Shown here: positions 17,905 through 63,732 of the stretch, piece after piece | How positions within the stretch are numbered: position 1 is the first letter of the stretch | Layout of the letters: each line of letters starts with the position of its first letter | Virus record (IMG/VR): IMGVR_UViG_3300046333_000090 | DNA from: a virus | Direction: 5' to 3' (one strand) | Length of the DNA stretch: 64,000 bases | Notes under the pieces: model-generated | Told to the model about the DNA's origin: nothing | The model's input: only the letters and a program-made list of their open reading frames with translations | Databases searched by the model: none | Translations under genes and position numbers: made by a program

Positions 17905-18432
17905 TTGTGTTATAATGATGTTGTAATTAATATCACTAGTAGATTTGATATAAGGACAAATGGGCAAAATGTAAAAATCTATGAACTAGTATATGGAGAA
18001 AAGACTAATCAAAACTATGTACTCAATCATTTAGATGACAATCCTAATAATAATAAGCTATGTAATCTAGAATTAGTCACTAATTGGTTCAACTCATCAA
18101 TACAGAAGAAGTCATCTGGACTAGATATTGGTATAAACTATAATCGTGATAATCGTGTTGGCAGTTATCAAACAAAAATTGCTATGCCAAGAGTAAATGG
18201 TAAGAGAATAACTTTTGGTTCACAATCTATTGATTATCTACAAAACTTACATTTCCAATTTGGAGTAAAGTCAGGATTAGTGTCTTCTGAACGATACTTA
18301 CAAGAAGTACCTAATTGGTTGCCAGATCTAACTATCCAATTCAAACCAGAACATCAGATCAAACTAGAACTACTAATTGAAGCACACATAGAGAATCAAC
18401 TTACTTGGGATAAGCCGATTAGGTTGGCATAA
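17905..18432 (+). CDS. HNH endonuclease family copy (5'-shortened; true start uncertain)
   Basis: NHLDDNPNNNKLCNLELVT; the C-terminus is closely similar to 49354-50049 (LQNLHFQFGVKSGLVS...LTWDKPI). Confidence 0.75.
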   Translation: MCYNDVVINITSRFDIRTNGQNVKIYELVYGEKTNQNYVLNHLDDNPNNNKLCNLELVTNWFNSSIQKKSSGLDIGINYNRDNRVGSYQTKIAMPRVNGKRITFGSQSIDYLQNLHFQFGVKSGLVSSERYLQEVPNWLPDLTIQFKPEHQIKLELLIEAHIENQLTWDKPIRLA

Positions 18433-18481
18433 TCTCACTAAGTCTGTTATAATAAAAAGGAACAAAGCATTACGACACAAA

Positions 18482-18850
18482 ATGAAATCGTTAGATCCAA
18501 TTTTCAGCTTTTCCGATCATCCGTCATTAAAAGGCGACCCACGCAGCACGTTATATTGTTGCCCTGATAGAAATAACCATATTAAATTCTACTATGCCAA
18601 CTATGAAGAATTAGTAGAAATCGGATTGAGTAGTTTAGCTTATTGTAACATGGGCGAACCGTATCGAGTACTAGCCAGACTATATTTTATTAAATTTAAT
18701 AATTGTCACAAAGAAACTATTAATATCTCAATGGAAGATGCAGTACGACTATACAAATATTTGCAAAAAATTAATATGATGGTATTAGTATCTAAAGATT
18801 TATTAACTGACAACACTTTTAAAAAATATTTAGAAGTATACGAAGATTAA
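18482..18850 (+). CDS. hypothetical protein
   Basis: Clean ORF with an upstream TGTTATAAT and AAAGGA. Confidence 0.6.
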   Translation: MKSLDPIFSFSDHPSLKGDPRSTLYCCPDRNNHIKFYYANYEELVEIGLSSLAYCNMGEPYRVLARLYFIKFNNCHKETINISMEDAVRLYKYLQKINMMVLVSKDLLTDNTFKKYLEVYED

Positions 18851-18954
18851 TTTTTAATTAAATACTTTATATTATTAAGATGATTCACTTTGATTATACA
18901 ATCATCAGAAGACTAAATTTTTGATTAAATATTAACCCACAACAGTAAAAAATA

Positions 18955-21900
18955 ATGCAAGTATTTAAAAGAGATGGCAGCATAGAACCATTAGATCTAG
19001 AAAAGATTCATACAATGGTATTTCGTGCATGTGAAGGGGTTGACGATGTGTCCCCTTCATTAGTAGTAATGAATAGTAAAATTCAATTAACAGATGGGAT
19101 TGCTACAGAATATATTCAAAATCTATTAGTGACATCTGCTAATAATTTAATTACTATCGAAGAACCAAACTATCAGTACGTGGCAGCACGACTACTACTA
19201 TTTGGACTATATAAATCTTTATATCCACAGTGGAAAACATTTGGGTTAGTACATATATATCACCATATCACTAGATTCAAAAACAAGTATGATTCTATCT
19301 TATTTGACAGTTACTCTAAAGAAGATTGGGACGTACTAAATGAAGCAATTGACCATAGTAAAGATTATAAATTTACATATGCGTCGTTACAACAATTAAT
19401 TGATAAGTATCTAATTCAAGACAGATCTACTGGATTTGTATATGAGATTCCGCAGTATGCGTATATGCTGATTGCCGCCACAGTATTTCATGATTATCCA
19501 GTAGAAACTAGATTAGCTACGGTTATAGATTACTACCATGCAATCTCCGATCATGAAATTAATCTCCCTACGCCTATTATGAGTGGCGTGAGAACTAAAC
19601 AACGCAATTTTTCTAGCTGTTTTCCTGCTGGACAATTAGTGCATACAAGTACTGGATTAAAGCCAATTGAAACTATTTCCGTTGGAAATATGGTGTTGAC
19701 TCATGCTGGAAGAATGATGTCAGTATTAGCTACGAATGCTAAATATTTTGAACAAAAATATGTAGCTATTGATACTTATTCTACTTTGAATGATCAATTT
19801 GTTTCAACTGATGATCATTTAATATTTGCGGCTAAGGATGTCGGATGTATTCGTGGTTCTGAACATCGTTCTTGTATATGCAGTCAGGGTATTTATAAAT
19901 ATTGTGAGAAATATCCCAGACAATATTCTGAAGATTGTATTAATTTATACAAAAATGATTTATTTGAACCAAAATGGACACCAGCAAAAGAATTAGATGA
20001 TAATTATTGGGTACATGTGGCATACAATAAATCTGTAGTAAATACTGAGTATTTAATTATATCAGATATAATTGATATTGGTAGTCGATACGATATCAAT
20101 GAAGAAGGATTGATACATTACAAAAGTTATAGATCTGATATATGGTATGTACCTAATAAAATTTATTTGAATGAAGAGTTATTCAGATTAATTGGGTATT
20201 ATTTGGCGGAAGGACATGCTACTGATGGTGGCAGTATGGGATTTACCTTCGGCAACAAAGATAAATATATTATTGATGATTGTGTAAATATTATTCAAAA
20301 CGTATTTGGGTATACAGTAATTCCCTCTAATAATCCTTACGACAATAGTACTAAAGTTAGTATATGCTCTAAAATTATTACTAACTTGTTTATCCGGCTG
20401 TGTAGCAATAAATTTGATAAAAAGTTTATTTGTTATGAATTAATGAATGCTTCTATAGAATTACAAAAGCAATTACTGATTGGAGTAATTCGGGGAGATG
20501 GTTGTGCGTATTCGCAGGGATTGCAGGTAGGGTTGTCTAATAAACAACTAATTTATCAATTATTTGATATATCTTTGCGATTAAAATTGTCACCAACTAT
20601 AAATGTGCAAAAATATAATGATGGTATACGCCAAGACGTGTATACTATATATTTTCCTAGAAGTGCAAATTATGATTTTATTATGGAAGTTGGTAAAGAT
20701 GTACATAAAGTAAATTATACTAGTAAAACATACGCTTATGGGATATGGAAAGATGACAATTATTTTACTAAAATAAAAAGCGTTAAAATTATTAATAGTA
20801 TTGACGATAATATAGTGTATGATTTACAAATTGCTGGAGATGAAAGTTTTGTAGTTTCTGGATTATCTGTACACAATTGCGCTTTACTTGATTGTGACGA
20901 TTCTACTTTATCTATATCTGCTAATAATCAAGCTACCGCTATGCTCACTGCCGCATCTAGTGGTATTGGTTTAAATGTGGGACGAATGAGGTCTATTGGT
21001 AGTAGTATCAGAAATGGTACAGTTATTCATCCTGGTATCGTCCCATTTTTGAAAATCTTTGAATCGACAGGTAAGGCATTTAGTCAGGCGGCGAGAGGTG
21101 GAAAACTAACCTGCTATTACCATATTTTCGGATACGAGATCGAAACAGTCATTCAACTCAAGAACAATCGTGCAAATGAAGTATCTTCGGTGAAGCATCT
21201 TGATTACTGTATTTGTATTTCAGAATTGTTTTATAAGAGATTTATAAATAACCAAAATATCACACTATTCTGTAATAGTGATACACCAGGATTGTATGAT
21301 GCTTTTGGCACCCCAGCATTTGATAAATTATATGAATATTACGAGAAAAAGGATGGGGTGAGAAAGAAAGTTGTATCTATGCAAAAACTGTTTGTAGATC
21401 TAATGGAACAACGATCTGAAACGGCGCGGATTTACATAATGAATGTCGATCATGCTAATACACATTCTCCGTACTTAGACGGAGTATATATGAGCAACTT
21501 GTGTGTTGCCCCAGAAACATTATTACTCACCAATAAAGGATATTTGCCAATTGGTACGCTAGAAGATCAATCAGTAACGATATGGAATGGATGGGAGTGG
21601 TCTGATACGGTAGTAAGAAAAACTGGAATTGATCAGAAACTAATCAATATTAAATTCCAAGATGATAAAGGTAATATTCATAACATAGAATGTACAGAAT
21701 ATCATAAGTTTTTTATACAATCCCGTAATGATGTAATTGAAGTTCGTGCAAACGATTTGATTGTTGGGCAATATATTCAGAATTGGAATCCTCCAGAATT
21801 TCTAATTGATTCTGATATAACTTTACATCAATATCATAGAGATTGGTGGGTATATAGCACACATAATATCGAAAGATTATCTGATACTTATTGTCTTACC

Positions 21901-22095
21901 GAACCAAAAAGAAATAGAATGGTAATAAATGGGATTCTCTCTGGGCAATGTGTCGAAATCATCCAGCCAAGTCACCCAATATCCGATATCAATGATACTG
22001 GAATTCACGAACATACTGTAGCAGTTAAGAATAATAAATTAGACGAATTTATTAAGCTATCTCAAGACAATGAGTTTCTTGAATTTCCTATCTAA
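18955..22095 (+). CDS. nrdA: class Ia ribonucleotide reductase alpha, fragment a (ATP cone to NLCxE), with two inteins
   Basis: ATP cone VFKRDG; LPTPIMSG.R; FSS|C; SNL|CVE. Confidence 0.93.
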   Translation: MQVFKRDGSIEPLDLEKIHTMVFRACEGVDDVSPSLVVMNSKIQLTDGIATEYIQNLLVTSANNLITIEEPNYQYVAARLLLFGLYKSLYPQWKTFGLVHIYHHITRFKNKYDSILFDSYSKEDWDVLNEAIDHSKDYKFTYASLQQLIDKYLIQDRSTGFVYEIPQYAYMLIAATVFHDYPVETRLATVIDYYHAISDHEINLPTPIMSGVRTKQRNFSSCFPAGQLVHTSTGLKPIETISVGNMVLTHAGRMMSVLATNAKYFEQKYVAIDTYSTLNDQFVSTDDHLIFAAKDVGCIRGSEHRSCICSQGIYKYCEKYPRQYSEDCINLYKNDLFEPKWTPAKELDDNYWVHVAYNKSVVNTEYLIISDIIDIGSRYDINEEGLIHYKSYRSDIWYVPNKIYLNEELFRLIGYYLAEGHATDGGSMGFTFGNKDKYIIDDCVNIIQNVFGYTVIPSNNPYDNSTKVSICSKIITNLFIRLCSNKFDKKFICYELMNASIELQKQLLIGVIRGDGCAYSQGLQVGLSNKQLIYQLFDISLRLKLSPTINVQKYNDGIRQDVYTIYFPRSANYDFIMEVGKDVHKVNYTSKTYAYGIWKDDNYFTKIKSVKIINSIDDNIVYDLQIAGDESFVVSGLSVHNCALLDCDDSTLSISANNQATAMLTAASSGIGLNVGRMRSIGSSIRNGTVIHPGIVPFLKIFESTGKAFSQAARGGKLTCYYHIFGYEIETVIQLKNNRANEVSSVKHLDYCICISELFYKRFINNQNITLFCNSDTPGLYDAFGTPAFDKLYEYYEKKDGVRKKVVSMQKLFVDLMEQRSETARIYIMNVDHANTHSPYLDGVYMSNLCVAPETLLLTNKGYLPIGTLEDQSVTIWNGWEWSDTVVRKTGIDQKLINIKFQDDKGNIHNIECTEYHKFFIQSRNDVIEVRANDLIVGQYIQNWNPPEFLIDSDITLHQYHRDWWVYSTHNIERLSDTYCLTEPKRNRMVINGILSGQCVEIIQPSHPISDINDTGIHEHTVAVKNNKLDEFIKLSQDNEFLEFPI
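19618..20877 (+). mobile_element. intein 1 in NrdA (420 aa, LAGLIDADG homing endonuclease)
   Basis: CFPAGQ...TDDH...LIGYYLAEG...LIGVIRGDG...VYDLQI...VHN|C. Confidence 0.92.
21502..21948 (+). mobile_element. mini-intein 2 in NrdA (149 aa, C-terminal Gln)
   Basis: CVAPETLLLT...CTEYHKF...TYCLTEP...LSGQ|C. Confidence 0.9.
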
Positions 22096-22156
22096 TATCC
22101 TCTCAGACCCCTCTAGGATGCCCTACAACGTACGATAATTAAAAATATGACTACTG
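22096..22156 (+). repeat. cassette core at the nrdA split
   Basis: CTCTCAGACCCCTCTAGGATGCCCTACAACGTACGA..AAATATGACTACT; its ATG is the start of fragment b. Confidence 0.75.
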
Positions 22157-23118
22157 ACATCTTCCGCATAGCAACAGACCGCCAATTCGATCCTAATACC
22201 GAAACATTAGTAGATGATGTAAAGATAATTGACAGACTGCCACCAGGCATCACATCTTGTGTATTAGGCGCAATCAGTTGGGATAAGTTATCTGACAACA
22301 TGTCAGATAACTTTATCAAAATGAAACGATGGTGTGATTTAGAGATCAGATCATTAAATCAGATCATCGACATACAGGAATACAATATCCCTAGTACAGA
22401 GATAGCCACTAAATCCGCAAGATATTTGGGGGTAGGGATTAATGGTTATGCAACATTTGCTGCACGATTAGGTTTATCATATAATCATAAAGAATTGTGG
22501 CAAATCACTCACGATCTTGCAGAAATGCAGATGTTTTGTCTATTATCTGCATCTAATAACTTAGCCAAAGAAGTAGGTGAATGTAAATGGTTTTATAAAA
22601 CTAAATATTCACAAGGAATTCTACCTATCGATCACTACAGGAAAAGTGTAGATGATGTAGTTCCTAATAATCTTAATATGGATTGGGAAGGGTTGAGAGA
22701 ATCAATTTTGATGAATGGACTCAGAAACAGTGCATTTTCTGCGGTGATGCCTGTACAATCATCTTCTGTAATTAGTAACAGTACTAATGGAATCGAACTA
22801 CCTCGCGCACCATTACAAATCATAAAGTCAAAGAATCGATTAATTCGACAAATAGTAAAAGATTTTAAAAAATTAGAAGATAATTATGAGTATTGTTGGG
22901 AAAAAAGTACAAATACAGGATATATCAATATTTGTGCCGTAATTCAAAAATTCTTCGACCAATCTATCTCAGCCAACTTGTATTACGATCCTAAATGGTT
23001 TTCAGACCAAACTATACCAATGGGTACGATGATTGGTGATGTCTTATATGCGTACAAGATGGGATTAAAAACATTGTATTATGCTAATTCAAATGACGGT
23101 CGAGATGATTATGAATAA
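22147..23118 (+). CDS. nrdA: ribonucleotide reductase alpha, fragment b
   Basis: SCVLGAI (C462 equivalent), RYLGVG, GLRNS, STNGIE, DQSISAN and GLKTLYY; there is no terminal CxxC. Confidence 0.92.
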   Translation: MTTDIFRIATDRQFDPNTETLVDDVKIIDRLPPGITSCVLGAISWDKLSDNMSDNFIKMKRWCDLEIRSLNQIIDIQEYNIPSTEIATKSARYLGVGINGYATFAARLGLSYNHKELWQITHDLAEMQMFCLLSASNNLAKEVGECKWFYKTKYSQGILPIDHYRKSVDDVVPNNLNMDWEGLRESILMNGLRNSAFSAVMPVQSSSVISNSTNGIELPRAPLQIIKSKNRLIRQIVKDFKKLEDNYEYCWEKSTNTGYINICAVIQKFFDQSISANLYYDPKWFSDQTIPMGTMIGDVLYAYKMGLKTLYYANSNDGRDDYE

Positions 23119-25499: not shown

Positions 25500-25552
25500 T
25501 TATTGTTCATAAATCACTATAGAAAAGAGCAATTATGGAGTTGCTCTGATTA

Positions 25553-25630
25553 ACATGCTCTGAGAGGGGTGTAGAATGCTGTGTAACGCACAGAAATTAT
25601 AAATAAGATTATTATTATCAAAATATAAAA
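25553..25630 (+). repeat. dispersed cassette core with TATAAATA
   Basis: GCTCTGAGAGGGGTGTAGAATGCTGTGTAACGCACAGAAATTATAAATAAG. Confidence 0.8.
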
Positions 25631-26092
25631 ATGATCAAAGAATTGATGAAGATCAAAGATCTAACAGAATTTGAATGCGATTGTGAAGGGGTTAGAGACA
25701 AACTATTCAATACTCCAGAATTATTGACAATAACAGAACTGATTTATTTTTTGAGGATGTCTAATAATTTAGATTACTGGATCACTGGTACTCATTATGC
25801 AGTGATGAAATTAGTATCTTTATTAAGAATGCTCGAACCAGTTTATGGGGTATATAAGGAACAAGATAAAGAAAAAAATAGAATTATCACTAGTATTTGT
25901 TTAAATTTTATTAGCAGCGAGAAGGGGTCATTACAGTATGCTGCATTGGATTTGGTAGAGGCTGGGATTTGTGCGGAGTATCAACCAATCGTTGATTTAT
26001 TCCCCGTTATTGAGAAAATAATTATTGGTGACAGACATACCTCCAAATATGTATTATCTCATTTAAAATTAATTAAGGATTCGCATATATGA
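25631..26092 (+). CDS. hypothetical protein
   Basis: ORF directly behind the cassette. Confidence 0.6.
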   Translation: MIKELMKIKDLTEFECDCEGVRDKLFNTPELLTITELIYFLRMSNNLDYWITGTHYAVMKLVSLLRMLEPVYGVYKEQDKEKNRIITSICLNFISSEKGSLQYAALDLVEAGICAEYQPIVDLFPVIEKIIIGDRHTSKYVLSHLKLIKDSHI

Positions 26093-27989: not shown

Positions 27990-28110
27990 TTATTAAATTT
28001 AATAATGACCTTCTAATTGATTTTAGAAGGTCATTATTTTTATGATTTGACACTAGTACTCATATTTATAGTTTTTGTGCGTTGTAGAGCATTTTAGCGA
28101 TGTCTGGCAA
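27990..28110 (-). repeat. full dispersed cassette, minus orientation
   Basis: Palindrome, AATGACCTTCTAA..TTAGAAGGTCATT hairpin, TATTTATA and GTGCGTTGTAGAGCATT. Confidence 0.85.
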
Positions 28111-28121
28111 TACATTAATAA

Positions 28122-28223
28122 CTGTGTTATAATGATTATATAGTTTATATTAATAAAATGATTCATTACGATCCTATAGTAAATTTATATCAGGTAACAT
28201 GGGAAGCACCAATTAAATTTTAA
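28122..28223 (+). pseudogene. miniature HNH-family derivative (promoter, first ~12 and last ~9 codons)
   Basis: The upstream region matches the 5' flank of 49354-50049. ORF 28158-28223 (MIHYDPIVNLYQ-VTWEAPIKF) matches MIHFCKILNLYQ...LTWDKPIMF. Confidence 0.65.
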
Positions 28224-29720: not shown

Positions 29721-30560
29721 ATGACCCCAGACTTAATGTTGGATGAATTGCTGAGAATTACTCAGTACAATAAAGATAACGGTATTGTTGATGTTAGTAT
29801 ATTAGCAGATAGTATTAGTGAACATGGGGATAGAATTACATCATTTTTACTGCATAGATTTGCGAAAGGGCATTGTCAAGCGGAATTGAATAAATCAAGA
29901 ACTGTTGCTAATAATAGCTTTTCTTCTCGTGCGGTAAATAAACAGAAATTTATTGATAATATTGTTGCGGATTGTTATATTCCCATCTGGACATCAGATC
30001 GTCCTGGTATGGTTGGTGATATAATAGTAGATCGGAAGCAAATAGATGACTTAAATTCTTCTTACCTCACTAAGATGTATAGTGATATTGAATATATAAA
30101 AAATAATTATAGTGGTATACACAAACAAGACACTAATTCGCAATTAGATGGTTATGCCAGAATCCCTATTATTGTAACCTCTACTAATTTCCCATATTTC
30201 TTCAGGTTACGTTGTGCAGATGGAGTAAAGCCAGAATTTAGAAGGATTGCTTTAATTATGGAAGAATTATTTAACAATTCTTCCCCAAAATTGACTGATT
30301 GGCATCTCCCTTGGATAAAACCAGAAGAAGAGTCGATGAACTTGGGGGACAAGTTGACTATGTGTGCCGCTCGTAGTGCATGGCTGAGTTATTCCAATCA
30401 CAATAAGCAATGTTCTATAGATGCTGCTAAAAAATTAGTTGATAAGTTGATTGGGTCTAAGCACTATAGCGTTTTCGATCATGCTGCATATGTCGATAGT
30501 GGTAGAGTTGGGGGTATATATAAAGGTTGGCGTGAACATAGACAATTAATTTTATATTAA
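29721..30560 (+). CDS. thyX: flavin-dependent thymidylate synthase ThyX (divergent phage type)
   Basis: ILADSIS, AELNKSR...SSRA, FFRLRC, WHLPW, ARSAWLSY and HYSVFDH. Confidence 0.72.
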   Translation: MTPDLMLDELLRITQYNKDNGIVDVSILADSISEHGDRITSFLLHRFAKGHCQAELNKSRTVANNSFSSRAVNKQKFIDNIVADCYIPIWTSDRPGMVGDIIVDRKQIDDLNSSYLTKMYSDIEYIKNNYSGIHKQDTNSQLDGYARIPIIVTSTNFPYFFRLRCADGVKPEFRRIALIMEELFNNSSPKLTDWHLPWIKPEEESMNLGDKLTMCAARSAWLSYSNHNKQCSIDAAKKLVDKLIGSKHYSVFDHAAYVDSGRVGGIYKGWREHRQLILY

Positions 30561-33103: not shown

Positions 33104-33218
33104 AGTTGTGTTATAATAAAAAAGGATTGTGGCGACGGCGATTGAAGATATACTTAGTGATAAAGTAATTTATCACTATATCTTTAATCGTCTTTTTTAT
33201 TCTGATAAACATATCAGA

Positions 33219-33298
33219 CATACGTTGATAGGGGGTTAGAATGCCCTACAACGCATGACAACTTAAATAATGACTACTAGTACTAAATCATAAAACTA
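33219..33298 (+). repeat. dispersed cassette core
   Basis: CGTTGATAGGGGGTTAGAATGCCCTACAACGCATGA..AAATAATGACTACTAGTAC. Confidence 0.8.
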
Positions 33299-36944: not shown

Positions 36945-37024
36945 ATAATAAATTTTTGATACCAGTAGTCATATTTATAGTTTTCCTGCGTTGTAGGGCA
37001 TTCTAGTCCCCTATCAACGCATAT
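36945..37024 (-). repeat. dispersed cassette core providing TATAAATA to gene 53
   Basis: Reverse complement GCGTTGATAGGGGACTAGAATGCCCTACAACGCAGGAAAACTATAAATATGACTACTGG. Confidence 0.82.
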
Positions 37025-37044
37025 TAATACCCGTTTAATTCTAC

Positions 37045-38513: not shown

Positions 38514-38572
38514 TTTTCTGACAAATATTAATATAAAAAAAGGAAAAATTTGGAAACATGTAATAGTTTAAA

Positions 38573-41551: not shown

Positions 41552-41640
41552 ATTTAATCCCCCTCTAATTAATTAGAGGGGGATTATCATATTTATGATT
41601 TTCGTGCGTTGAGGGGCATATTAACGGCATCTGAGATTAT
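41547..41640 (-). repeat. dispersed cassette, minus orientation
   Basis: Palindrome, AATCCCCCTCTAAT/ATTAGAGGGGGATT hairpin and CATATTTATGATTTTCGTGCGTTGAGGGGCAT. Confidence 0.82.
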
Positions 41641-41641
41641 A

Positions 41642-47909: not shown

Positions 47910-49238
47910 ATGCAGTTTGTTGGGGATTACTCATTAACCAATGTATTTTTATCAAACAAAGATAAAATAATAGATATCAAGGAGATGATCGCAGAGATCA
48001 ATATATATGAGTCGGTCAATAGTGTAGCTATCAGTGCAGATCTTACTATATCTGATAATAAGAATATATTAGAATCATTTCCTATAGTTGGTGGGGAATT
48101 TATTACTATATATGTTGGTACAAATAATGACAAATATGTATTAGATTTTGTAATATATAAAATAGATTCAAAAGTAATCTCAGAAAAAAGTCAAGTATAC
48201 ATTTTACGACTTTGTACTAAGGATACCATCACTAATGAAACTAGTAGGTTTAGTAGAAGATTCAAGAATAAATTTAGTGATGAGGTGACTAAAGACCTAC
48301 TAAAAAATTATATTAAAACTACTAAAAAGATTGATGTTGACCAAACCATTTACCCACTAAATTTTGTATCACCTAATTGGCGGGTGTTCGATCTTATTAC
48401 TTGGATGGCTAGGAAAAGTACAAGTATAAAGAATGTTCAATCTGCTGGATACCTTTTTTATGAAGGACTTGATTCTTACCACTACAAAAGTATAGATAAT
48501 TTGTTTGCTCAAACAAGTAAGAATGAGAACATACCATTTACTTATGTTCCTGCAAAAACAAGTACGGATGCTGATAAAAACTATAGAATCGTTAAATATG
48601 TGAGCGATTCATATTTTGATGTATTAGAACAATCCAGGATGGGGGCACTGTCCCATTTTAATGAGCGAATAGATTTTACTAGTAGAACCAAAACTCTTAC
48701 AAAAAGTACACTTAGTAGTATTTGGAAACACCAATCACACTTAGGTGGTGGTAATATTCCAGCACAGATAAACAATTTATTATTTGCTAATCCGTCAAGA
48801 GTAATATATACTCCAATAATTAATCAATTGTTTGGTGAATCTATTGTGTATGACGGAGACGACGATAAAATTAATAAGCTAATAAATCGCAGTGTATATA
48901 GATATACATCGATGGATTTCTTTACTATTAATATTGAGATCGCTGGTAATTTGGGTATTAGAGCGGGTGCTGTTTACACACTGAATATCCCTTCCCCCAA
49001 CCCAGATTCAAATGCCAACAGGAATAGACAAACAGATAATGATCTTAGTGGCAATTGGATGTGCCACAGCATAAAGACATCAATAAACCGTACTTCTACT
49101 ACCAGTATAGTAAGATTATGTAGGGACAGTGTAGGTGGAACAAAAATTCCTATTATAGGTACTTCTGCTAAAAGTATTAATAATGTAGATAGAAGTATTA
49201 TTGATACTGATATTAGGGAACTTAAAAATATAGTCTGA
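47910..49238 (+). CDS. baseplate hub / tail protein (gp27-like)
   Basis: IYES...PIVGGE, FV.PNW, YLFYE..D.Y.YKSIDNL and LSGNW; located upstream of gp5. Confidence 0.7.
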   Translation: MQFVGDYSLTNVFLSNKDKIIDIKEMIAEINIYESVNSVAISADLTISDNKNILESFPIVGGEFITIYVGTNNDKYVLDFVIYKIDSKVISEKSQVYILRLCTKDTITNETSRFSRRFKNKFSDEVTKDLLKNYIKTTKKIDVDQTIYPLNFVSPNWRVFDLITWMARKSTSIKNVQSAGYLFYEGLDSYHYKSIDNLFAQTSKNENIPFTYVPAKTSTDADKNYRIVKYVSDSYFDVLEQSRMGALSHFNERIDFTSRTKTLTKSTLSSIWKHQSHLGGGNIPAQINNLLFANPSRVIYTPIINQLFGESIVYDGDDDKINKLINRSVYRYTSMDFFTINIEIAGNLGIRAGAVYTLNIPSPNPDSNANRNRQTDNDLSGNWMCHSIKTSINRTSTTSIVRLCRDSVGGTKIPIIGTSAKSINNVDRSIIDTDIRELKNIV

Positions 49239-49352
49239 GCGGGGTCTAGAATGCTCTACAACGCATGATAACTCAAATAATGACTATTAGGACAACTCAT
49301 AAAAATAATGACCTTCTAATTGATTAGAAGGTCATTTTATTAAATTTAATAA
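49234..49352 (+). repeat. full dispersed cassette abutting the HNH 3' end
   Basis: CTGAGCGGGGTCTAGAATGCTCTACAACGCATGA...ATGACCTTCTAATTGATTAGAAGGTCAT..TATTAAATTTAATA. Confidence 0.88.
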
Positions 49353-49353: not shown

Positions 49354-50049
49354 TTAGAACATAATAGGTTTATCCCAAGTAAGCTGATTTTCTATGTGTG
49401 TAGCAATTAATTGGTCTAGTTTTATCTGATGTTCTGGTTTGAATTGAATGGTAGAATCTGGCAACCAATTGTGAACTTCTTTGAGGTATCGTTCTGGACT
49501 GACTAATCCAGATTTTACTCCAAACTGATAATGCAAGTTCTGGAGATAATTCATATCTTCAGAACCAAAATTTATTCTCTCACTATTTCTAGGCATATGA
49601 ATTTGTGTTCTATAGCTACTACTACCATTATTATATATTGCACCAATAGGTAGTCCAGATGACTTCTTTCGTAATACTGTATTAAACCAATTAGTAACTA
49701 CTTCTAAATTAGTAAGTTTATTATTACTAGGATCGCCATCTATATGATTAATTACATAGTTATTATTAGTCTTGACTCCAAATACTAATTCATGAATATA
49801 TGTAGTTTGTCCATCTTTATGAGTATGAAATCTACCTCCACTATCAGGATTAAAATTATATAGTTTTAACAATTCTACTTTATCAAGATCTATAGAATTA
49901 GTATATAATTTACCAGATTTAGTATTGAGTAGATGTAATAGATCATCTACAAATAATTGATTATATGTAAGTTTTTGATTACTTTTATTGAGATTATGGT
50001 GAGGTTGATCGAATTGATAGAGATTTAAAATTTTACAGAAATGAATCAT
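49354..50049 (-). CDS. HNH endonuclease (longest member of the repeated family)
   Basis: YIHELVF...INHIDGDPSNNKLTNLEVVT; TGTGTTATAAT promoter upstream. Confidence 0.85.
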   Translation of the reverse strand: MIHFCKILNLYQFDQPHHNLNKSNQKLTYNQLFVDDLLHLLNTKSGKLYTNSIDLDKVELLKLYNFNPDSGGRFHTHKDGQTTYIHELVFGVKTNNNYVINHIDGDPSNNKLTNLEVVTNWFNTVLRKKSSGLPIGAIYNNGSSSYRTQIHMPRNSERINFGSEDMNYLQNLHYQFGVKSGLVSPERYLKEVHNWLPDSTIQFKPEHQIKLDQLIATHIENQLTWDKPIMF

Positions 50050-50125
50050 TTTAATACAATATAAACTGTATAATCATTATAACACAGATTTCATAAATAT
50101 GAATAGAATTACCAAATCATTGTAA

Positions 50126-52585
50126 ATGAATCCCAACTTCAATCACACAAATAACTTAACCCAAAGCAACTTTTTCTATGGCGTAATCGAAAGTACATCT
50201 GATGCCAGTGGGTTGCATAGAGTAAAAGTAAGGATCGTCGGTGTACATAGCGATGATAGAAAAATGTTACCTACTGAGGATCTACAGTGGAGTTTAGTCG
50301 CCAACAGTACAAACTCCACCGGAAAGCATACACTTAAACCAGGGAATTTTGTTGTATGCACATTTCTTGATGCAGATATGCAACAAGCTATTGTGCTATT
50401 TTCATTATTAAGTAAAATCAAACAAAAGGGGGTAGTACTGAACAGTATTCAAGATGCCCAAACCCCAGGGGGAGTATTCATAAACTACAATTCTCCGCCA
50501 TCGCCATCTACAGATAGCGATCAATCTATATATACAGGAACTATACCAGTAGAAACAATAGCCAAATCTCAAGATGGGGCAAATATAGGTAATCCGTTCG
50601 GCAAGAACACCCAAGCAATCGCAGCTAATGGTAAAAATGGTGGTACAGGAATGTTTGCCGATATCGAACGAGAAATCATCTCGTTGGGTAATATATTCAA
50701 ACACGTAGTGTTGTATGATACTGACGACATTACCTTATCCGCAGACATAGATAGCGAAATAGGTATCATACCACTGAGTAGAGTAAACAACATTCCAAAA
50801 TCAGGAATTATAAAAATCGGCGACGAAATAATCACTTATTCTGGTATAGCTGATACAGGATTGTCAGGGCAAATATTGAGAGGAAGTCCAGATAGAAATA
50901 GTATAATATCTACCAAAAAAGCAGAACATAAAGCTGGAGACATAGTAACTTGGATATACCCAAAAGTAAAGAACGACAAAGCACCATTATTTTATAGTCA
51001 ACTCACCGGACAAGCTATAGATTTCGCCAAAGAGATCAAAAAAAGGATGTCAGTAGTCAATGGATACATTACATGGTTAGTAAATAAAATTTCTAGTCAG
51101 ATTGTATCTACATTAAGTGAATTAATTGCTGGCATAACATTAGCACTCAAAACTCCTACTGCATTGATTGGTAAGATCATAGTAGATGCACTACTATTGG
51201 TTCTATCTCAAGTATTATGTTCTTTTGATAAGGCAACTGTTGACTCATTAGTACTATCAATAGAGCAATATATTACAGATCAAGTAACTACATTAATTAG
51301 GAGTTTTTATGAAAATGCCACAGCTATTCAACAGTTCATCAGTGATTGTACTAATAAAATATTTGATGCCGTATTACAATTTGCTAGTATTATTCAATCT
51401 ATTGGCAACCTAATTACAAATATTACAAGGATATTCCCTGGTGCTAGTGGCGAAGCTATTAAGGTAATCGACACTAATTCAGAACCGGATACTTTGAATA
51501 AGGATAAGGTAAATGGTATATCATTTCCGGATCTAACCAATACTGCAAATATCGTAGCAAAATTATTAAATTTTTTAGGATTGGGTTGTAAGCAAGAAGT
51601 TGGGGAAAATATTAATGTTCCTGAATGTGTGACTACTGGATATTTCCCACCAGCTAATTTATGCGATCCTAATCCTGACCTTATATCAGCACTGAATAAT
51701 TTGTGGCGACCTTTACCTCAGTTTATCACTAATTATGACTTTGGTGGTGGTCTGAAGGCTGAGTATGACGGTACGCCAGGGGTAGAGAGGACGTTATTGT
51801 CATCTCCTGCGGGTACTTATACAGAAGTGTTCAATGATGGAACTAGTCGCACAGTAATTTCCAAAGATTCGTATACACTCATTTTGAATGATAACAATAT
51901 CGAGATAAAAGGCAATTGCAATTGGAAAGTTGATGGTAATTTCGGTTTAAAAGTATCTGGGAATCTAGATTTGGAGGTTGGTAAAGAATTACGAATGTCT
52001 ATCGGTGGTAGTAGCAAGATTACATATGGCGGTTCACATAATACAATTTACGGTGGGGACAGTGTGATAAATGCGACAAATAAGTTGAATATAACTGGAA
52101 GTCAAATTGGGTTAGTTGCTTCTGGTGTAGTAGACATCAAAGGTGGAGTATTCGATGTACTTACCAGTGAGATCAATCTTACATCATCTGGTAGTTTGAG
52201 TTTGATTTCATTGCATAGTAATTTTGTTAGTGGGGTATCGCATAAGGAGATACATAGCGGAACCGTAGATAAACTTGTGGTTGGTTCGCAGAAAAAGATT
52301 AATCTTGGTAGTTACGTTGGTGACGCTATAGGAAATCATCAAACTAATTATATGAGTACTAAGACCTCTAACGTGGCAGGAATTCATACAATTACTAACA
52401 ATTCTTTGTACACCATTAGTAGTAATATTAAAACAGAAAAAGTAGAGCAATTAAGTACATTTAATACAAAAGTACTACAAATTAACGCAAATAATAAAAT
52501 TGAGACAATCAACGGTAGTAGTCTTAACTATGCAAATGGCTTGGCATTGCGTCAAACTAGTGGGGGTATAAACATGGATTCCTGA
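50126..52585 (+). CDS. 5: baseplate central spike (T4 gp5-like)
   Basis: OB-fold G.IE..D..RVKVRIVG.H..L.W; D.TPG.ER; C-terminal beta-helix repeats; no recognisable lysozyme domain. Confidence 0.82.
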   Translation: MNPNFNHTNNLTQSNFFYGVIESTSDASGLHRVKVRIVGVHSDDRKMLPTEDLQWSLVANSTNSTGKHTLKPGNFVVCTFLDADMQQAIVLFSLLSKIKQKGVVLNSIQDAQTPGGVFINYNSPPSPSTDSDQSIYTGTIPVETIAKSQDGANIGNPFGKNTQAIAANGKNGGTGMFADIEREIISLGNIFKHVVLYDTDDITLSADIDSEIGIIPLSRVNNIPKSGIIKIGDEIITYSGIADTGLSGQILRGSPDRNSIISTKKAEHKAGDIVTWIYPKVKNDKAPLFYSQLTGQAIDFAKEIKKRMSVVNGYITWLVNKISSQIVSTLSELIAGITLALKTPTALIGKIIVDALLLVLSQVLCSFDKATVDSLVLSIEQYITDQVTTLIRSFYENATAIQQFISDCTNKIFDAVLQFASIIQSIGNLITNITRIFPGASGEAIKVIDTNSEPDTLNKDKVNGISFPDLTNTANIVAKLLNFLGLGCKQEVGENINVPECVTTGYFPPANLCDPNPDLISALNNLWRPLPQFITNYDFGGGLKAEYDGTPGVERTLLSSPAGTYTEVFNDGTSRTVISKDSYTLILNDNNIEIKGNCNWKVDGNFGLKVSGNLDLEVGKELRMSIGGSSKITYGGSHNTIYGGDSVINATNKLNITGSQIGLVASGVVDIKGGVFDVLTSEINLTSSGSLSLISLHSNFVSGVSHKEIHSGTVDKLVVGSQKKINLGSYVGDAIGNHQTNYMSTKTSNVAGIHTITNNSLYTISSNIKTEKVEQLSTFNTKVLQINANNKIETINGSSLNYANGLALRQTSGGINMDS

Positions 52586-52587
52586 TA

Positions 52588-52712
52588 ACATACGCTGAGA
52601 GGGGGATAGGATGCCCCTCAACATATGAAAAACAGAAATATGACTACTGGCATCAAATCATAAAAATAATGACTTCCTAATTAATTTTAGAAGGTCATTA
52701 TTAAATTTAATA
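52588..52712 (+). repeat. full dispersed cassette
   Basis: CGCTGAGAGGGGGATAGGATGCCCCTCAACATATGA..AATATGACTACT, then hairpin and palindrome. Confidence 0.85.
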
Positions 52713-52933
52713 TTTAATAATGTTGCATACATCCAATAAATGTGTTATAATGATTATAACCTACGCCAGTCTTACATGATTGTCTTAAAAGTGAGAAAAT
52801 CTGTCAACAACATTATTAACAACCATTATTGGTTTCCTAAAATTTTGTATCAGATCGGCACCAGCAAAATTAAAATTTATATGTTATACTAGTAGCATAT
52901 CGAAAAAATAAGCAAATTATATGTATATACCCC

Positions 52934-53346: not shown

Positions 53347-53420
53347 TCTTTATTATCTCTTAAAATACTCACTCTACATTTAGTGTAGGGTGAGTATTTT
53401 TAATAAATAGGAATATACAT

Positions 53421-53542
53421 ATTAAATTTAATAAACCCGTTCTAGAATGCGTTAGAACGGGTTTATTTTTATATTTTAATACTAGTAGTCGTATTTATGG
53501 TTATCATGCCTTGTAGGGTATACTAAAACCATCTTAAAGTAT
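53421..53542 (-). repeat. dispersed cassette, minus orientation
   Basis: Palindrome, AAACCCGTTCTA..TAGAACGGGTTT hairpin and ACTAGTAGTCGTATTTATGG..CATGCCTTGTAGGGTAT. Confidence 0.75.
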
Positions 53543-53624
53543 AATCGGTTTGCTCCAATATAAATTATATAATAATTATAACATAAATATAGTTAATGCA
53601 ATTAAATATATATATACATATAAT

Positions 53625-59030: not shown

Positions 59031-59152
59031 TTATTAAATTTAATAAACCCCCTCTAGATGATTCTAGAGGGGGTTTATTTATGATTTGATACTAGTGTCA
59101 TTATTCTAGTTTCTATGCTCTACAAGTCATCCTAGACCCCTCTCAGCACATA
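59031..59152 (-). repeat. full dispersed cassette fused to the 3' end of an HNH remnant
   Basis: Reverse complement WDKPIMC-stop runs directly into TGTGCTGAGAGGGGTCTAGGATG, then hairpin and palindrome. Confidence 0.85.
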
Positions 59153-59410
59153 ATAGGTTTATCCCATGTAAGCTGATTTTCTAAGTGTGCTTCTATTAAT
59201 TGATCTAGTTTTGTTTGATGTTCTGCTGGGAATACAATATTAGGATCTGGCAACCAATTATCTACTTCTAATAGATATCTTTCTGGACTGACTAAACCAG
59301 ATTTTACTCCAAACTGGTAATGAATGTTTTGTAAGTAATTAATTAAGATCTTTTGAACAAAAATTTATTCGTTTCTTTATTCTTGGTCTAGCAATTCGTG
59401 TTTCATAGCT
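59143..59410 (-). pseudogene. 3' remnant of an HNH-family gene
   Basis: Encodes QFGVKSGLVSPERYL...HLENQLTWDKPIMC with a frameshift and no HNH motif. Confidence 0.8.
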
Positions 59411-59495
59411 ATTAATATATTGTCAGAATACTCTAGAATACTTTAGAATCGATAGTAACTATAAATATGAATAGAAATATTAAATTTAATAAGAC

Positions 59496-60407
59496 ATGGC
59501 TGCTATACAATTATTAAGAAAAAGTAGTACTAATGGAGTAATACCTACTACTGCTCAATTATTATTAGGAGAATTGGCGATCAATACATTTGAGGGGAGA
59601 TTATTCAGTAAAAAAAATAACGGCATAGAATCAATCACTGAGTTTGTAAGTACTACCGGAAATTTTATAGGTACAATAGATACGATACCCATTGGTAGAG
59701 GTACTGGAGGATTAGCAGGAAATATTAGAATAGGTATCGGAGCATTAGCAAATAATACAGGAAGTACCTCAAATATAGCGGTAGGAACAAATGCACTAGC
59801 CAGTCTTAATGTGGTTAATACTGGCAATAATATTGGATTGGGACAGAATACCCTAACTGCCAATATTAGTGGTACGGATAATATAGCAATAGGTACAGGC
59901 GCATTATCCGCCAATACAGTAAGTGGTGGTTTGGCAATAGGTGTCAATGCAGGTAGTAACAGTACTATTGGTGCGGGAAATATATTTTTGGGAAACAATA
60001 CTACATTAGCTGCTGCTGCTAACACTAATTCAATCGTAATTGGCAATGGTACGGCTGGATTAGGTAATAATACTACTGTCATCGGGACTACTGCTACGAC
60101 ATTTACTAAATTGTGGGGAAAATTATCACTAGATAGTACAATTGTTACTGTTGCTGCTACTACATTTACTATTAATAAACCAGCAGGAATTCTTCTTTGT
60201 TCTGTGGGCAACGCAATCATTACCGTAAATAATAGTTTGGTGACAGTTAATAGTATAGTGTCAGTACAGTTAAGAAATATTCCTTCCCCGACTACTGCTG
60301 TTATCCGTAATGTGGTAGTCAATAATGGGTCATTTACCATCAACTTTGCGGCAACTCCTACAGTCACCCAACCAAGAATATCATTTATTGTTATTGAGAC
60401 AATCTAA
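59496..60407 (+). CDS. tail fibre / fibre-like structural protein
   Basis: IQL.R...PT...GELAIN..EG.LF N-terminus and NxAxGxxAL repeats; late promoter at 59460-59467. Confidence 0.75.
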   Translation: MAAIQLLRKSSTNGVIPTTAQLLLGELAINTFEGRLFSKKNNGIESITEFVSTTGNFIGTIDTIPIGRGTGGLAGNIRIGIGALANNTGSTSNIAVGTNALASLNVVNTGNNIGLGQNTLTANISGTDNIAIGTGALSANTVSGGLAIGVNAGSNSTIGAGNIFLGNNTTLAAAANTNSIVIGNGTAGLGNNTTVIGTTATTFTKLWGKLSLDSTIVTVAATTFTINKPAGILLCSVGNAIITVNNSLVTVNSIVSVQLRNIPSPTTAVIRNVVVNNGSFTINFAATPTVTQPRISFIVIETI

Positions 60408-60408
60408 A

Positions 60409-60490
60409 TATACGCGGAGAGGGGTCTAGACTGCCTTACAACGCACGAAAACTCCAAATATGACTACAAGTACCAGATTACCTAAATAAT
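60409..60490 (+). repeat. dispersed cassette core
   Basis: CGCGGAGAGGGGTCTAGACTGCCTTACAACGCACGAAAACTCCAAATATGACTAC. Confidence 0.82.
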
Positions 60491-61556: not shown

Positions 61557-61565
61557 CTATTCCCT

Positions 61566-61645
61566 AATGTTCTCTCAGATGCCCCTAGAATGCCTTGTAA
61601 GGTCTTTTGGGGCATTTTGATATAAATCCATATTAAATTTAATAC
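61566..61645 (+). repeat. degenerate cassette copy with palindrome
   Basis: TCTCTCAGATGCCCCTAGAATGCC...TATTAAATTTAATA. Confidence 0.6.
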
Positions 61646-61815: not shown

Positions 61816-63045
61816 ATGTCAATCGAAGTCGTAAACCATACTACAGCAACAGCAACAGGTAAAGTAAAAAGTCCTTCTGCCTACCTCAAATCTATTACAG
61901 ACGCAAAGAAAATTGGCGAATTTTTCACAATTCCTTTATCAGCCTTAGAAATATACCCAAACTTCAACAAGCGCACTGACTATAAACTCGATGAATTGAA
62001 ATTATTTATTGAACAAAACAGTGTTAGTGCATTACCAGCTATCAAGCTAATGTATATCGATGGCAAATTGTATGTAGAAGAAGGGCATCGGCGACAAAAA
62101 GCTTGTGTTGAACTGGACTTGCCCCCAGAAACCCCAATCAAAGTATTTATTGGGGAACCATCATCTTCCGCAGAAAGACTAGCGCGCCAAATTTCCAGTA
62201 ATTCTGGGGAGAAATATAATTTTGTAGAGATGGTGGCGGTGGTTAAAGAGTTGATTCAAAAGGAAGGTATGACCCAGACTCAAGTAGCCAAGATGATTGG
62301 TAAAACTCAAGGTTCTGTAAGTCAGATGTCTTTGTTCTTCAATTACAGCAATCTCTTGCTGCTCGAAATTCAACATGGTTCCATCAAGTATACACGAGTA
62401 ATGGAATTACAAAAATCTGGTTATACCGAAGAACAGATTTTAGAAGTAATCAAGAAAAGTACTCATAATTCTACTTCAGATAAAGCACCAGTACCACCAA
62501 TAAATCCTGATTCTGATAAATTAAACCAATTGTTAGGCGACGATCATCCGATAGATGATAAAAATACATCTGGTGGTAAGCGGAAAGGTAGTAAATCTGG
62601 TGGTAAGCAGAAAGGTAGTAAATCTGGGGGTACGCGGAAAGGGGATGAACCCGTAGAAGAGGATCTGATTAATGCGGAATCCCTAGAAAACCCAGAAGAG
62701 GATCTGATTAATGCGGAATCCCTAGAAAACTCAGAAGAGGATCTGATTAATGCGGAATCCCTAGAAAACTCAGAAGAGGATCTGATTAATGCGGAATCCC
62801 TAGAAAACTCAGAAGATTATGATGACGAAGAACTAAAAAAAGCGGTAATACTCAAAGATAGCGGTGTTGCTCCCAATAAACCAACTGCAACAGAGACTAG
62901 TATTAAAAAAGTTAATGTAAAATTGGTGTTGGTCAATTTCTTCATTGATGCCAAGATTGTTGATAATGGCGATGGTACTGTTTCATACAACATCACCCAA
63001 GAACAGCACGCTGAGTTTCAGCGTAATTGTATGAATATCCAGTAA
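61816..63045 (+). CDS. ParB-like CTPase domain + HTH protein with acidic repeat tail
   Basis: FNKR, EGHRRQKA (ParB GxRR box) and HTH GMTQTQVAKMIGKTQGSVSQ. Confidence 0.78.
   Translation: MSIEVVNHTTATATGKVKSPSAYLKSITDAKKIGEFFTIPLSALEIYPNFNKRTDYKLDELKLFIEQNSVSALPAIKLMYIDGKLYVEEGHRRQKACVELDLPPETPIKVFIGEPSSSAERLARQISSNSGEKYNFVEMVAVVKELIQKEGMTQTQVAKMIGKTQGSVSQMSLFFNYSNLLLLEIQHGSIKYTRVMELQKSGYTEEQILEVIKKSTHNSTSDKAPVPPINPDSDKLNQLLGDDHPIDDKNTSGGKRKGSKSGGKQKGSKSGGTRKGDEPVEEDLINAESLENPEEDLINAESLENSEEDLINAESLENSEEDLINAESLENSEDYDDEELKKAVILKDSGVAPNKPTATETSIKKVNVKLVLVNFFIDAKIVDNGDGTVSYNITQEQHAEFQRNCMNIQ
62569..62643 (+). repeat. 27-bp tandem repeat x3 (SGGK(R/Q)KGSK)
   Basis: TCTGGTGGTAAGC.GAAAGGTAGTAAA units. 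Confidence 0.8.
62656..62811 (+). repeat. 39-bp tandem repeat x4 (EEDLINAESLEN(P/S))
   Basis: GAAGAGGATCTGATTAATGCGGAATCCCTAGAAAAC(C/T)CA occurs four times. Confidence 0.95.
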
Positions 63046-63177: not shown

Positions 63178-63444
63178 ATGAGTCTAAAACTCACGTCTTC
63201 TAACCCAAACAAGGAATATCGAAACATGAACGCTAAAGATATGATCATTTCATCGGTAGACTCTAATGGAGATGTCACTATTCTTGCCACTAAGTACGAT
63301 CCCACAATTCTCCACCCTATCACGGTGTTTGCCAACACTGGATTTTACGGGTGGATTCTAAAAATCCACGACAACAAAACTACGATTAATAATGATGCTC
63401 CTACCAGCATCTTAAATCGAGTATATAACTTAATCACTTGGTAG
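63178..63444 (+). CDS. hypothetical protein
   Basis: 88-aa ORF. Confidence 0.5.
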   Translation: MSLKLTSSNPNKEYRNMNAKDMIISSVDSNGDVTILATKYDPTILHPITVFANTGFYGWILKIHDNKTTINNDAPTSILNRVYNLITW

Positions 63445-63459
63445 ATTCTATGTCCAATC

Positions 63460-63493
63460 CAACTAAGTCCACACATTTGTGTGGACTTAGTTG
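63460..63493. terminator. long perfect hairpin
   Basis: CAACTAAGTCCACAC-ATTT-GTGTGGACTTAGTTG. Confidence 0.6.
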
Positions 63494-63585
63494 ATGCTAC
63501 TTTAGTATTATAAACTTTCTTCTCTGTTTCTGTTTACCCACTTCAAAAAAAAAATATAACTAAAAAGTTATCTTTTTTTTGTTAT

Positions 63586-63732
63586 TGGGATAAGCCAATT
63601 ATGCTCTCAGATCCGTCTAGAGTGCCCCTCAACGCACGAAAACTAGAATAATGACTTACTATATCAAATTACAGCTGTCGTGCCTTACAGAGCATTCTAG
63701 AGGGATATTAAATTTGATATAGTAAGTCATCA
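63586..63732. repeat. HNH 3' tip plus cassette core, followed by rearranged inverted cassette fragments
   Basis: TGGGATAAGCCAATTATG-CTCTCAGATCCGTCTAGAGTGCCCCTCAACGCACG; ATGACTTACTATATCAAATT and AATTTGATATAGTAAGTCAT form an inverted pair. Confidence 0.7.

Follow-up and report, generated by a model that had tools for sequence, protein, structure and literature searches.

A probable family of free-standing HNH homing genes joined to a late-promoter-like core at many gene junctions of a T4-like phage

Introduction

A 64,000-nucleotide (nt) stretch of viral DNA (IMG/VR record IMGVR_UViG_3300046333_000090; hereafter, the window), a segment of the 156,966-bp metagenomic contig of a T4-like myophage, carries a family of HNH endonuclease genes together with a repeated non-coding cassette. 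In the lineage of the window, the 3' end of the HNH open reading frame (ORF) is fused at a fixed point to a short core with the sequence of a T4-type late promoter. A single HNH family is found at a dozen or more junctions of one phage genome, with all stages of decay visible, and several of the occupied sites are shared with a diverged sister lineage without a signal of orthology, which would imply repeated refilling or within-genome concerted evolution. The reading that we consider probable is that of a narrow, free-standing, I-HmuI/mob-like HNH homing family, confined to one phage lineage and very dense there, equipped with a portable promoter/terminator module and passing through invasion, decay and refilling at fixed junctions. 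The usual account of a homing endonuclease gene has it invade a single site, decay there and disappear.

The comparisons that follow draw on L002, which is another part of the window's own genome, on L001, L007, L011 and L160, which are among the parts of the same genome and its close relatives, and on a sister lineage made up of the IMG/VR contigs G001 (59 kb) and G002 (30 kb), whose core proteins are ~54-74% identical to those of the window.

The HNH family and its copies in the window

The intact HNH gene (minus strand, 49354-50049) is an open frame for the 231-amino-acid (aa) protein P0001, which matches Pfam HNH_3 (E 7e-7) and the PHROG HNH endonuclease families; the only PDB match of its profile is to I-HmuI (1U3E), over the HNH motif (E 0.023). 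Pfam HNH_3 is found in 28/28 family members tested. The beta-beta-alpha-metal motif of HNH enzymes is present with its conserved His and Asn residues, H102, N109, N110, N114 and N123 being invariant, and the proteins are predicted endonucleases. The family is narrow (7 clusters below E 1e-30 among 1.8 billion representatives), and residues 165-231 are unique to it. The C-terminal half, presumed to be DNA-binding, is nearly invariant across paralogs at different sites. Pfam gives no AP2 match for the family, and the AlphaFold2 model of P0001 built on the 28-sequence family alignment (mean predicted local distance difference test score, pLDDT, of 57) is too poor for fold searches. Frames that hold the C-terminal domain only are open at window 40336-40614, at L002 8047-8313 and in protein P0050 (92, 88 and 103 codons), and several full-length paralogs have an internal Met just ahead of this domain; a separately made DNA-binding fragment is conceivable.

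The gene is preceded (minus strand, 50050-50100) by a 5' untranslated region (UTR) and its own putative extended -10 promoter, TGTGTTATAAT, at 50076-50086. This region is overlapped on the plus strand by a late-promoter box, CATAAATA (50092), which is assigned by position to the baseplate-hub gene starting at 50126. The HNH copies share a specific extended -10 promoter, AATAACTGTGTTATAATGATTATA, which is set apart by the letters after the -10 element from the generic TGTG(T/C)TATAAT promoters found at other genes.

The remaining copies were detected by self-BLAST of the window with the full gene and its flanks. P0002 (plus strand, 17905-18432; 175 aa) has lost ~72 N-terminal codons, keeps the HNH motif, the Pfam HNH_3 match and the promoter (17906-17916), and is joined straight onto the stop codon of a 322-aa gene (17939-18425: 76% nt identity, E 3e-101; tblastn, residues 73-229, E 5e-68). 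At this site the HNH gene of the sister lineage is full-length. The pseudogene at 40181-40614 (plus strand) consists of a promoter (40222), codons 1 to ~24 (19-24) and then codons ~140-231; in this copy (40259) the 92 C-terminal codons are open in a different frame, without a start codon (40337-40635: 70% nt, E 4e-36; 40181-40320, promoter and first codons: E 5e-15). An AT palindrome (40620-40635) and a baseplate gene (40644) follow it. A frameshifted 3' remnant of codons ~145-231 (minus strand, 59145-59417; 79% nt, E 3e-62) is joined to a core at the usual junction. At 28123-28223 (plus strand) the HNH promoter and 5'UTR lead into a 21-codon mini-ORF (28158-28223) of 12 N-terminal and 9 C-terminal codons, which translates as MIHYDPIVNLYQ followed, across the deletion junction, by VTWEAPIKF and a stop; the junction sits at shared ATCA(A/G) microhomology, and the self-BLAST match (28122-28167, 92% nt, E 8e-13) spans the promoter, the 5'UTR and the first mini-ORF codons. 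The density is ~1 copy or remnant per 8-10 kb.

Thus the HNH copies listed in a previous, sequence-only reading of the window are borne out by self-BLAST, by their translations and, for P0001 and P0002, by Pfam HNH_3. Its three small traces, placed near 18865, 52741 and 63586, are short matches that are plausible through the context of their sites or junctions only. The first is a 5'UTR-like stretch with the initial 4-5 codons, ATGATTCAC (MIHF...), upstream of nrdA (plus strand, 18862-18915). The second is an HNH-type promoter remnant, TGTGTTATAATGATTATA, with no ORF behind it (plus strand, 52738-52760), in the intergenic site between an 819-aa and a 1271-aa gene. The third is a 3' tip, TGGGATAAGCCAATTATG, running into a core (plus strand, 63585-63678, with a partial inverted core at 63668-63706); its segment 63585-63607 matches at 87% over 23 nt (E 0.2 alone) and has the same core junction as nine other copies.

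The junction between the HNH gene and the core

The tie between HNH gene and cassette that had been proposed from the window is upheld in the window's lineage, where the two usually form one physical unit. The coding end TGGGATAAACCTATTATG meets CTCTGAGAGGGG, with the stop codon inside the core, in at least nine copies: in L001, in L002 (four times), in L011, in L160, and at 59160 and 63592 (the tip) of the window. The same fixed junction is seen in intact, frameshifted, internally deleted and mini HNH copies, and an HNH tip has been left on a solo core at L007 12786. At the junction between a TnsA-like gene and gp2, L160 and L006 have promoter, HNH gene and core, and in the window the site is empty, with 59 nt between the genes (38514-38572); the block of three has therefore been gained or lost as a unit. 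Location at gene junctions, with presence or absence between relatives, as expected of a free-standing gene, is found here and at the other shared or polymorphic sites.

The usual HNH-core junction is the one at 59150. In the earlier reading the HNH 3' end ran into the cassette at 59150 and 63600 and abutted one at 49352. The first two stand, but the cassette at 49352 is oriented the other way and comes after the stop codon of a tail gene upstream of it (47910-49238), so that the full gene at 49354 is the atypical case. An empty site for the P0001 insertion was not found, since all contigs with the neighbouring tail gene also carry the HNH gene.

The core as a late-promoter sequence

A profile made from seven copies and run over the window finds 13 full and 4-5 partial cores. 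Read in the HNH direction, the composite cassette begins at the stop of the upstream ORF and continues through the two halves of the core, the 5' one of ~45 nt (ATATGCTCTGAGAGGGGTCTAGAATGCCCTACAACGCACG) and the 3' one (AAAACTATAAATATGACTACTAGTATCAAATCATAAAAAT), to a hairpin that differs between copies by compensating changes and to the palindrome TTATTAAATTTAATAA. The core itself is ~87 nt long and, in fused copies, holds the last HNH codons and the TGA stop. Abundance is far above chance: the palindrome has 16 copies in the window, against 0.04 expected. The cassette has the putative stem-loop terminator and AT-rich region, repeated between genes, that characterize PeSL-type modules; it has no sigma70-like early promoter (TTGACA-N17-TATAAT) inside, the sigma70-type promoters lying outside the core.

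By its sequence, the 3' half of the core is a match to the T4-type late promoter (C/T)ATAAATA, complete with a 5'UTR. Ten genes have such a box 25-36 nt ahead of their ATG, roughly half of these boxes being outside cores, and the genes encode tail, baseplate-hub, tail-fibre and virion proteins and gp53; a gp33-like late coactivator is also encoded by the phage. In front of many late genes, the interval from the late-promoter box to the start codon contains the palindrome, 2-3 nt before the ATG (its 16 window sites include 10327, 23416, 33534, 44343, 47892, 53147 and 59477); the palindrome looks like a part of the late-gene leader, possibly an operator or translation signal, rather than a partition site. 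The cassette is not an anonymous miniature inverted-repeat transposable element (MITE): besides the late-promoter match in the 3' half, it has a hairpin and an AT palindrome that belong to the ordinary late-gene leader of this phage.

The 5' half has a conserved sequence. To read the core as a structured RNA finds no support: Rfam has no match in the window at gathering thresholds (nor are there tRNAs in it), RNAalifold finds no consensus structure in 26 cores, and in the imperfect palindrome of the 5' half 59.6% of cells are paired, which shuffled sequences equal (304/500). The suggestion that the cassette is an RNA associated with the HNH protein accordingly finds no support, the cores showing neither a consensus structure nor covariation. 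A sigma70 promoter on the opposite strand of the core is rejected: a TTGAYA-like word and a TATAGT-like word are separated by just 14 nt, and there is little conservation of the -35-like word. In one HNH-fused core of the sister lineage (G002 ~10383-10447), TCTAAAATGCC is tandemly repeated five times, a case of slippage in the 5' half.

Scans for the core pattern beyond this phage group, in collections of viral, genomic and metagenomic sequence, give only chance-level matches apart from G001, G002 and L001 (checked with nhmmer); L012 and L015 match it over 21 nt only.

HNH genes without cores and cores without HNH genes

Six HNH paralogs are carried by the 156,966-bp contig, 6-7 by G001 and 3 by G002. 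G001 and G002 have two cores each, and 2/4 of these are joined to an HNH 3' end; of the HNH copies in G001, G002 and L159, ~7/10 are without a core. In its place, TTGACT-N17-TATAAT directly follows the HNH stop in 5/9 G001/G002 copies, and also in L159. L157 has an HNH gene of the same family with no core within 20 kb. Conversely, some sites, such as that upstream of gp53, have a solo core and no trace of an HNH gene. The co-occurrence of HNH clade and cassette, which the sequence-only reading had offered as a check, is thus not obligatory in either direction. Since most HNH copies of the sister lineage have a sigma70-type promoter behind them instead, HNH genes can spread without the core. 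To judge from these sequences, the recurrent feature is a downstream-facing promoter, and the particular core is lineage-specific.

Shared sites and clustering by lineage

Several HNH junctions are common to both lineages: that between the 322-aa gene and nrdA, that between the 442-aa and 819-aa tail/baseplate genes, that between the TnsA-like gene and gp2, and the terL site. At the 442/819 site the HNH genes are on opposite strands in the two lineages. G001 has an intact HNH gene where the window holds only cores, after nrdB and between the 819-aa and 1271-aa genes, the latter being the site at which the window keeps the promoter remnant at 52741.

The HNH tree consists of two lineage clades (support 99/98 and 100/100). 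Between lineages, copies at the same site are 53.9% identical and copies at different sites 55.8 +/- 3.2%; paralogs within a lineage are 68.9% and 75.2% identical (range 61-77%, mean 69%, in the window's lineage and 70-79% in the sister lineage). Because the copies cluster by lineage and not by site, HNH sequence has been copied between sites after the lineages split. The route may have been either re-invasion or gene conversion. In L002 a 131-nt tract over the HNH end and core is 92% identical between two sites, the 5' parts being 76% identical. Of the proposal that the HNH gene mobilises itself and the cassettes, then, the movement of HNH sequence between sites within lineages is upheld.

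Decay in place

At the site between the neck gene and gp15, L001 has a full-length HNH gene with nonsense mutations and L002 a mini copy, the middle of which has been replaced by a short form of another small element. The deletion breakpoints, in codons, are ~12/222 (28158), ~24/140 (40259), ~44/138 (L002 7909) and ~37/208 (L002 19319), with several 3' breakpoints in an indel-rich linker near codon 140. As the breakpoints differ among remnants, each remnant has decayed independently and none is a copy of another; a MITE family would show one deletion derivative repeated at many sites, and this is not what is found.

The other small element is itself dispersed: it is found at window 5333-5641 and 63913-64000 (where it runs off the end), at L002 19405-19519 and at G002 ~30266-30356. 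It starts with ATTATCGGAGATTTGGGTAAAAACCCC, has a TTGACT-N17-TATAAT promoter inside and ends with GGAGGTATGTCAA, a Shine-Dalgarno sequence and ATG. Its two window copies are 98% identical over the 86 nt compared, the 115-nt short form inside the mini-HNH of L002 keeps both ends, and in G002 its right end truncates another HNH gene at codon 98. Rfam has no significant match to it (best E 0.14). GTATGTCAA, at the 40321 deletion junction, was considered as a trace of this second element and judged to be chance, the same 9-mer being found elsewhere.

A cycle of invasion, decay and refilling, and its alternatives

These facts can be assembled into a composite scheme. Each HNH copy would be a self-contained insertion module consisting of a host-type extended -10 promoter, the ORF and a downstream-facing module, the last being core, hairpin and late-leader palindrome in the window's lineage and usually a sigma70-type promoter in the sister lineage. 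With such a promoter facing downstream, the next gene would still be expressed after insertion between a stop and a start codon. The modules would occupy gene junctions, with one core at the split in nrdA. After fixation the HNH ORF would decay in place by nonsense mutations and microhomology deletions, by deletions at the slippage-prone linker near codon 140, or by replacement with another small element. The regulatory ends would be kept because neighbouring genes use them, giving rise to the nested series of remnants and to at least some of the solo cores. With the 50-130 nt of homology that remnants and cores retain on either side, an intact paralog could be copied into other sites, refilling them or replacing what is there, through ectopic gene conversion or through homing in co-infected cells; the clustering by lineage would be explained in this way. 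An HNH gene of this kind would limit its own cost by bringing along the next gene's promoter, whether a late-type core or a sigma70-type sequence, and the promoter block may outlive the HNH gene and join the regulatory layout of the phage.

Several points weigh against this scheme. The promoter and terminator activities are deduced from motif, spacing and class of downstream gene. In 3 of the ~8 fused copies the late promoter of the core faces a convergent gene and therefore cannot serve the downstream gene there. The 5' half, CTCTGAGAGGGGTCTAGAATGCCCTACAACGCACG, is not part of late promoters outside cores, and is without RNA covariation. Clustering by lineage could come from repeated independent invasion and not from gene conversion; a pairwise maximum chi-square scan for conversion is confounded by rate differences along the gene, and only the L002 3' tract stands out in it. 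Finally, many solo cores, such as those at 37031 and 3576, are without a recognisable HNH tip, so that not all of them need be relics.

We regard one alternative as unlikely, though with facts in its favour: the core would be an independent, older regulatory repeat, a late-promoter counterpart of the PeSL and PmSL cassettes, that spreads and shuffles alone through recombination; one ancestral HNH gene would by chance have become fused to one copy, the fusion being copied with the gene thereafter, and most solo cores would never have been linked to an HNH gene. Solo cores without HNH trace stand directly upstream of genes at promoter spacing (3576, 33210, 37031); core positions are kept between the window and L160; the two halves also occur separately (956-994, 61563-61602, 50083-50126, 59460); and cores are abundant in the window's lineage only, HNH genes in both. 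Against this stand the fusion to HNH 3' ends of 2/4 cores even in the core-poor sister lineage, the HNH tips on some solo cores (63592, L007 12786), the intact HNH genes of G001 at sites where the window has only cores, and the graded series from intact gene through mini copy to tip.

A second alternative, quite unlikely in our estimation, makes the 5' half of the core a shared DNA site that all paralogs bind, nick or cut, so that solo cores would be targets for multi-site homing; the binding-site idea of the earlier reading comes close to this. A protein site is expected to be conserved without RNA structure, as the 5' half is; the left margin at which the HNH gene meets the core is always the same; residues 165-231, at the C terminus, are found in this narrow family only; and the C-terminal half is near-invariant across sites, unlike that of T4 seg and mob paralogs with different targets. 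But the sister lineage has proliferated HNH genes equally with almost no cores, at least 13 copies of its own target would call for a protection mechanism, none of which is evident, and binding is a supposition that the poor AlphaFold2 model cannot assess. If the core were also the DNA site of the enzyme, this would be a natural multi-site homing system. T4-type late transcription is activated by a sliding clamp loaded at DNA nicks. Taken one step further, as a long shot, the 5' half would be a common recognition or nicking site by which the family homes into any core-bearing junction, remnants serving as landing pads, and an HNH nick beside the late promoter could enhance transcription; the nick would then be a built-in enhancer, and the selfish gene useful to the phage.

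Least probable, and very much so, is a transposon-like autonomous element with MITE-like derivatives and excision/insertion chemistry: the nested deletion series with both ends retained, on which it was founded, is real, the element at 59031-59492 is flanked by inverted cores and palindromes, and AATATG-like direct repeats bracket the 5' half, with a precise 51-nt insert at the TAATATG junction of nrdA, but there is no transposase, I-HmuI-type HNH_3 enzymes being nicking and homing nucleases, terminal inverted repeats and target-site duplications are inconsistent or lacking, the flanks vary (core, palindrome only, sigma70-type promoter, or nothing), breakpoints differ between copies as in independent decays, and the retained ends, a promoter and a regulatory module, could equally have been kept through use by neighbouring genes. 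The AATATG-like repeat around the 5' half lies in AT-rich sequence, and the end architecture as a whole is inconsistent.

Relation to known systems

Free-standing HNH genes of T4-like phages include mobA-E, with MobE between nrdA and nrdB, and the mobE that splits nrdA of Aeromonas phage Aeh1 (PMC2988022, PMC2790892, PMC3045599). Like the genes described here, they stand between genes under promoters of their own, close to or within genes for nucleotide metabolism and structural proteins; a genome has several paralogs, related genomes differ in the sites that are occupied, and decay follows fixation. The rule that a free-standing homing endonuclease occupies one site, invoked earlier in favour of transposition, is too strong in view of the multi-copy seg and mob families of T4 (PMC2988022). 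The system unites themes known from the T4 mob and seg endonucleases, from mobA with the gene-60 insert and from the PeSL cassettes. It is set apart by paralogs that are dense and alike, by an ORF whose end is fused to a late-promoter core, and by shared sites at which no signal of orthology is seen. Unlike T4 mob and seg genes, the HNH ORF has its 3' end fused to a repeated core, and its family is without a match in 50,697 cultured-phage records (tblastn with P0001); the paralogs, at one copy or remnant per 8-10 kb, are 61-77% identical and cluster by lineage. The mob and seg paralogs of T4 are much more divergent and have different targets.

T4 mobA and the 50-nt bypass insert of gene 60 travel together, and 'hit and run' denotes an insert left behind after loss of the HNH gene (bioRxiv 10.1101/2022.08.31.505936). 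The likeness is in the pairing of an HNH gene with a short (~50 nt) non-coding insert, here the 51-nt core gap between the nrdA pieces. The difference is that the core is mostly intergenic, bears a putative promoter, shows no sign of bypass and has at least 13 copies per 64 kb, against one site. In 2011 Bonocora et al. reportedly treated T4 mobA with the gene-60 insert as a mobile cassette.

The PeSL and PmSL cassettes of T4-type phages are modules of promoter, stem-loop and AT-rich sequence between genes (PMC2839356, PMC4122927). Like them, the composites described here are repeated, flank variable ORFs (variable ORFs adjoin the cores) and may supply homology for modular shuffling. PeSLs have sigma70-type early and PmSLs Mot-box middle promoters, whereas the core has a late-type (C/T)ATAAATA box, an extra conserved 5' half of ~45 nt and a fusion to the coding end of a homing endonuclease. 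With MITEs the likeness is that short non-coding derivatives outnumber the coding element and that internal deletion derivatives exist; the differences are variable breakpoints, the absence of a transposase, of terminal inverted repeats and of a consistent target-site duplication, and a short element that has a regulatory reading.

The split in nrdA

One core (plus strand, 22088-22174) is located exactly between the stop of nrdA-a (22095) and the start of nrdA-b (22147), whose start codon is supplied by the ATGACTACT of the core. The split lies between the NLCxE motif and the C462-equivalent cysteine, and both pieces have extra tails. In G001 nrdA is split in the same place, the junction reading TAATATG without a core, so that in the window the core amounts to a 51-nt insert at a stop/start junction. 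The mobE-split nrdA of Aeh1 is a parallel (PMC3045599). A gene-60-type bypass was considered for the nrdA of the window and rejected, nrdA-a ending in TAA, nrdA-b having its own ATG and G001 having TAATATG without a gap; with separate stop and start codons at the same split in G001, there is no case for bypassing. The split region of the Aeh1 gene is said to be similar to the one seen here.

The nrdA of the window (18955-23118) also contains a LAGLIDADG intein and a second mini-intein at the active-site cysteine (NL/C).

Positions of the cassettes in the window

The usual composite downstream of an HNH gene (minus strand, 59031-59160) is made up of the core (59074-59160), the hairpin (59047-59073) and the AT palindrome (59031-59046). 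The composite at 49221-49352 (plus strand) comes after the stop of the tail gene 47910-49238, and the HNH gene meets its palindrome end from the opposite strand. Solo composites extend from the stop codon of the baseplate-hub gene (plus strand, 52581-52713) and, inverted, lie upstream of a tail-fibre gene (minus strand, 53419-53552); another stands upstream of the mini-HNH, inverted relative to it (minus strand, 27990-28122). The solo core after nrdB (plus strand, 25546-25632), at the site of an intact HNH gene in the sister lineage, has its TATAAATA box 25 nt before the ATG at 25631, and the solo core between a 341-aa gene and gp53 (minus strand, 36945-37031) has the same box 36 nt before the gp53 ATG; in the sister lineage this core is absent and the two genes abut. 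Solo cores lie directly upstream of the gene at 3665 (plus strand, 3576-3662, with palindrome and hairpin preceding) and of the gene at 33299 (plus strand, 33210-33296, with the same site in L160). Two further cores start from stop codons, one from that of an 899-aa gene, between convergent genes (minus strand, 41563-41649), and the other, a solo core, from that of the structural gene 59496-60407 (plus strand, 60400-60486).

The phage and other features

The window has a GC content of 32% and encodes a DnaB-like helicase, an intein-bearing split nrdA, nrdB, the gp33-like late coactivator, gp32 and gp53, together with baseplate, tail and tail-fibre genes. The phage is probably a cyanophage, because NblA is encoded by syntenic relatives of the window. 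Among cultured phages (50,697 records) a 4-kb window probe has no megablast match.

The gene adjoining the polymorphic HNH site next to gp2 (minus strand, 38073-38513) encodes a TnsA-like N-terminal endonuclease domain and is kept in three lineages; its family name comes from the Pfam matches of syntenic relatives. Elsewhere in the same genome, outside the window, an IS607-type element (L002 3455-5431) has genes for a serine recombinase (Resolvase) and TnpB (OrfB_IS605/Cas12f-like) and is followed by a 67-aa ORF whose stop lies inside a core (L002 5427). Within the ORF at 61816-63045 of the window, 5-6 tandem 39-nt repeats (62616-62849), 99% identical in the middle of the array, encode a repeated acidic 13-residue unit.

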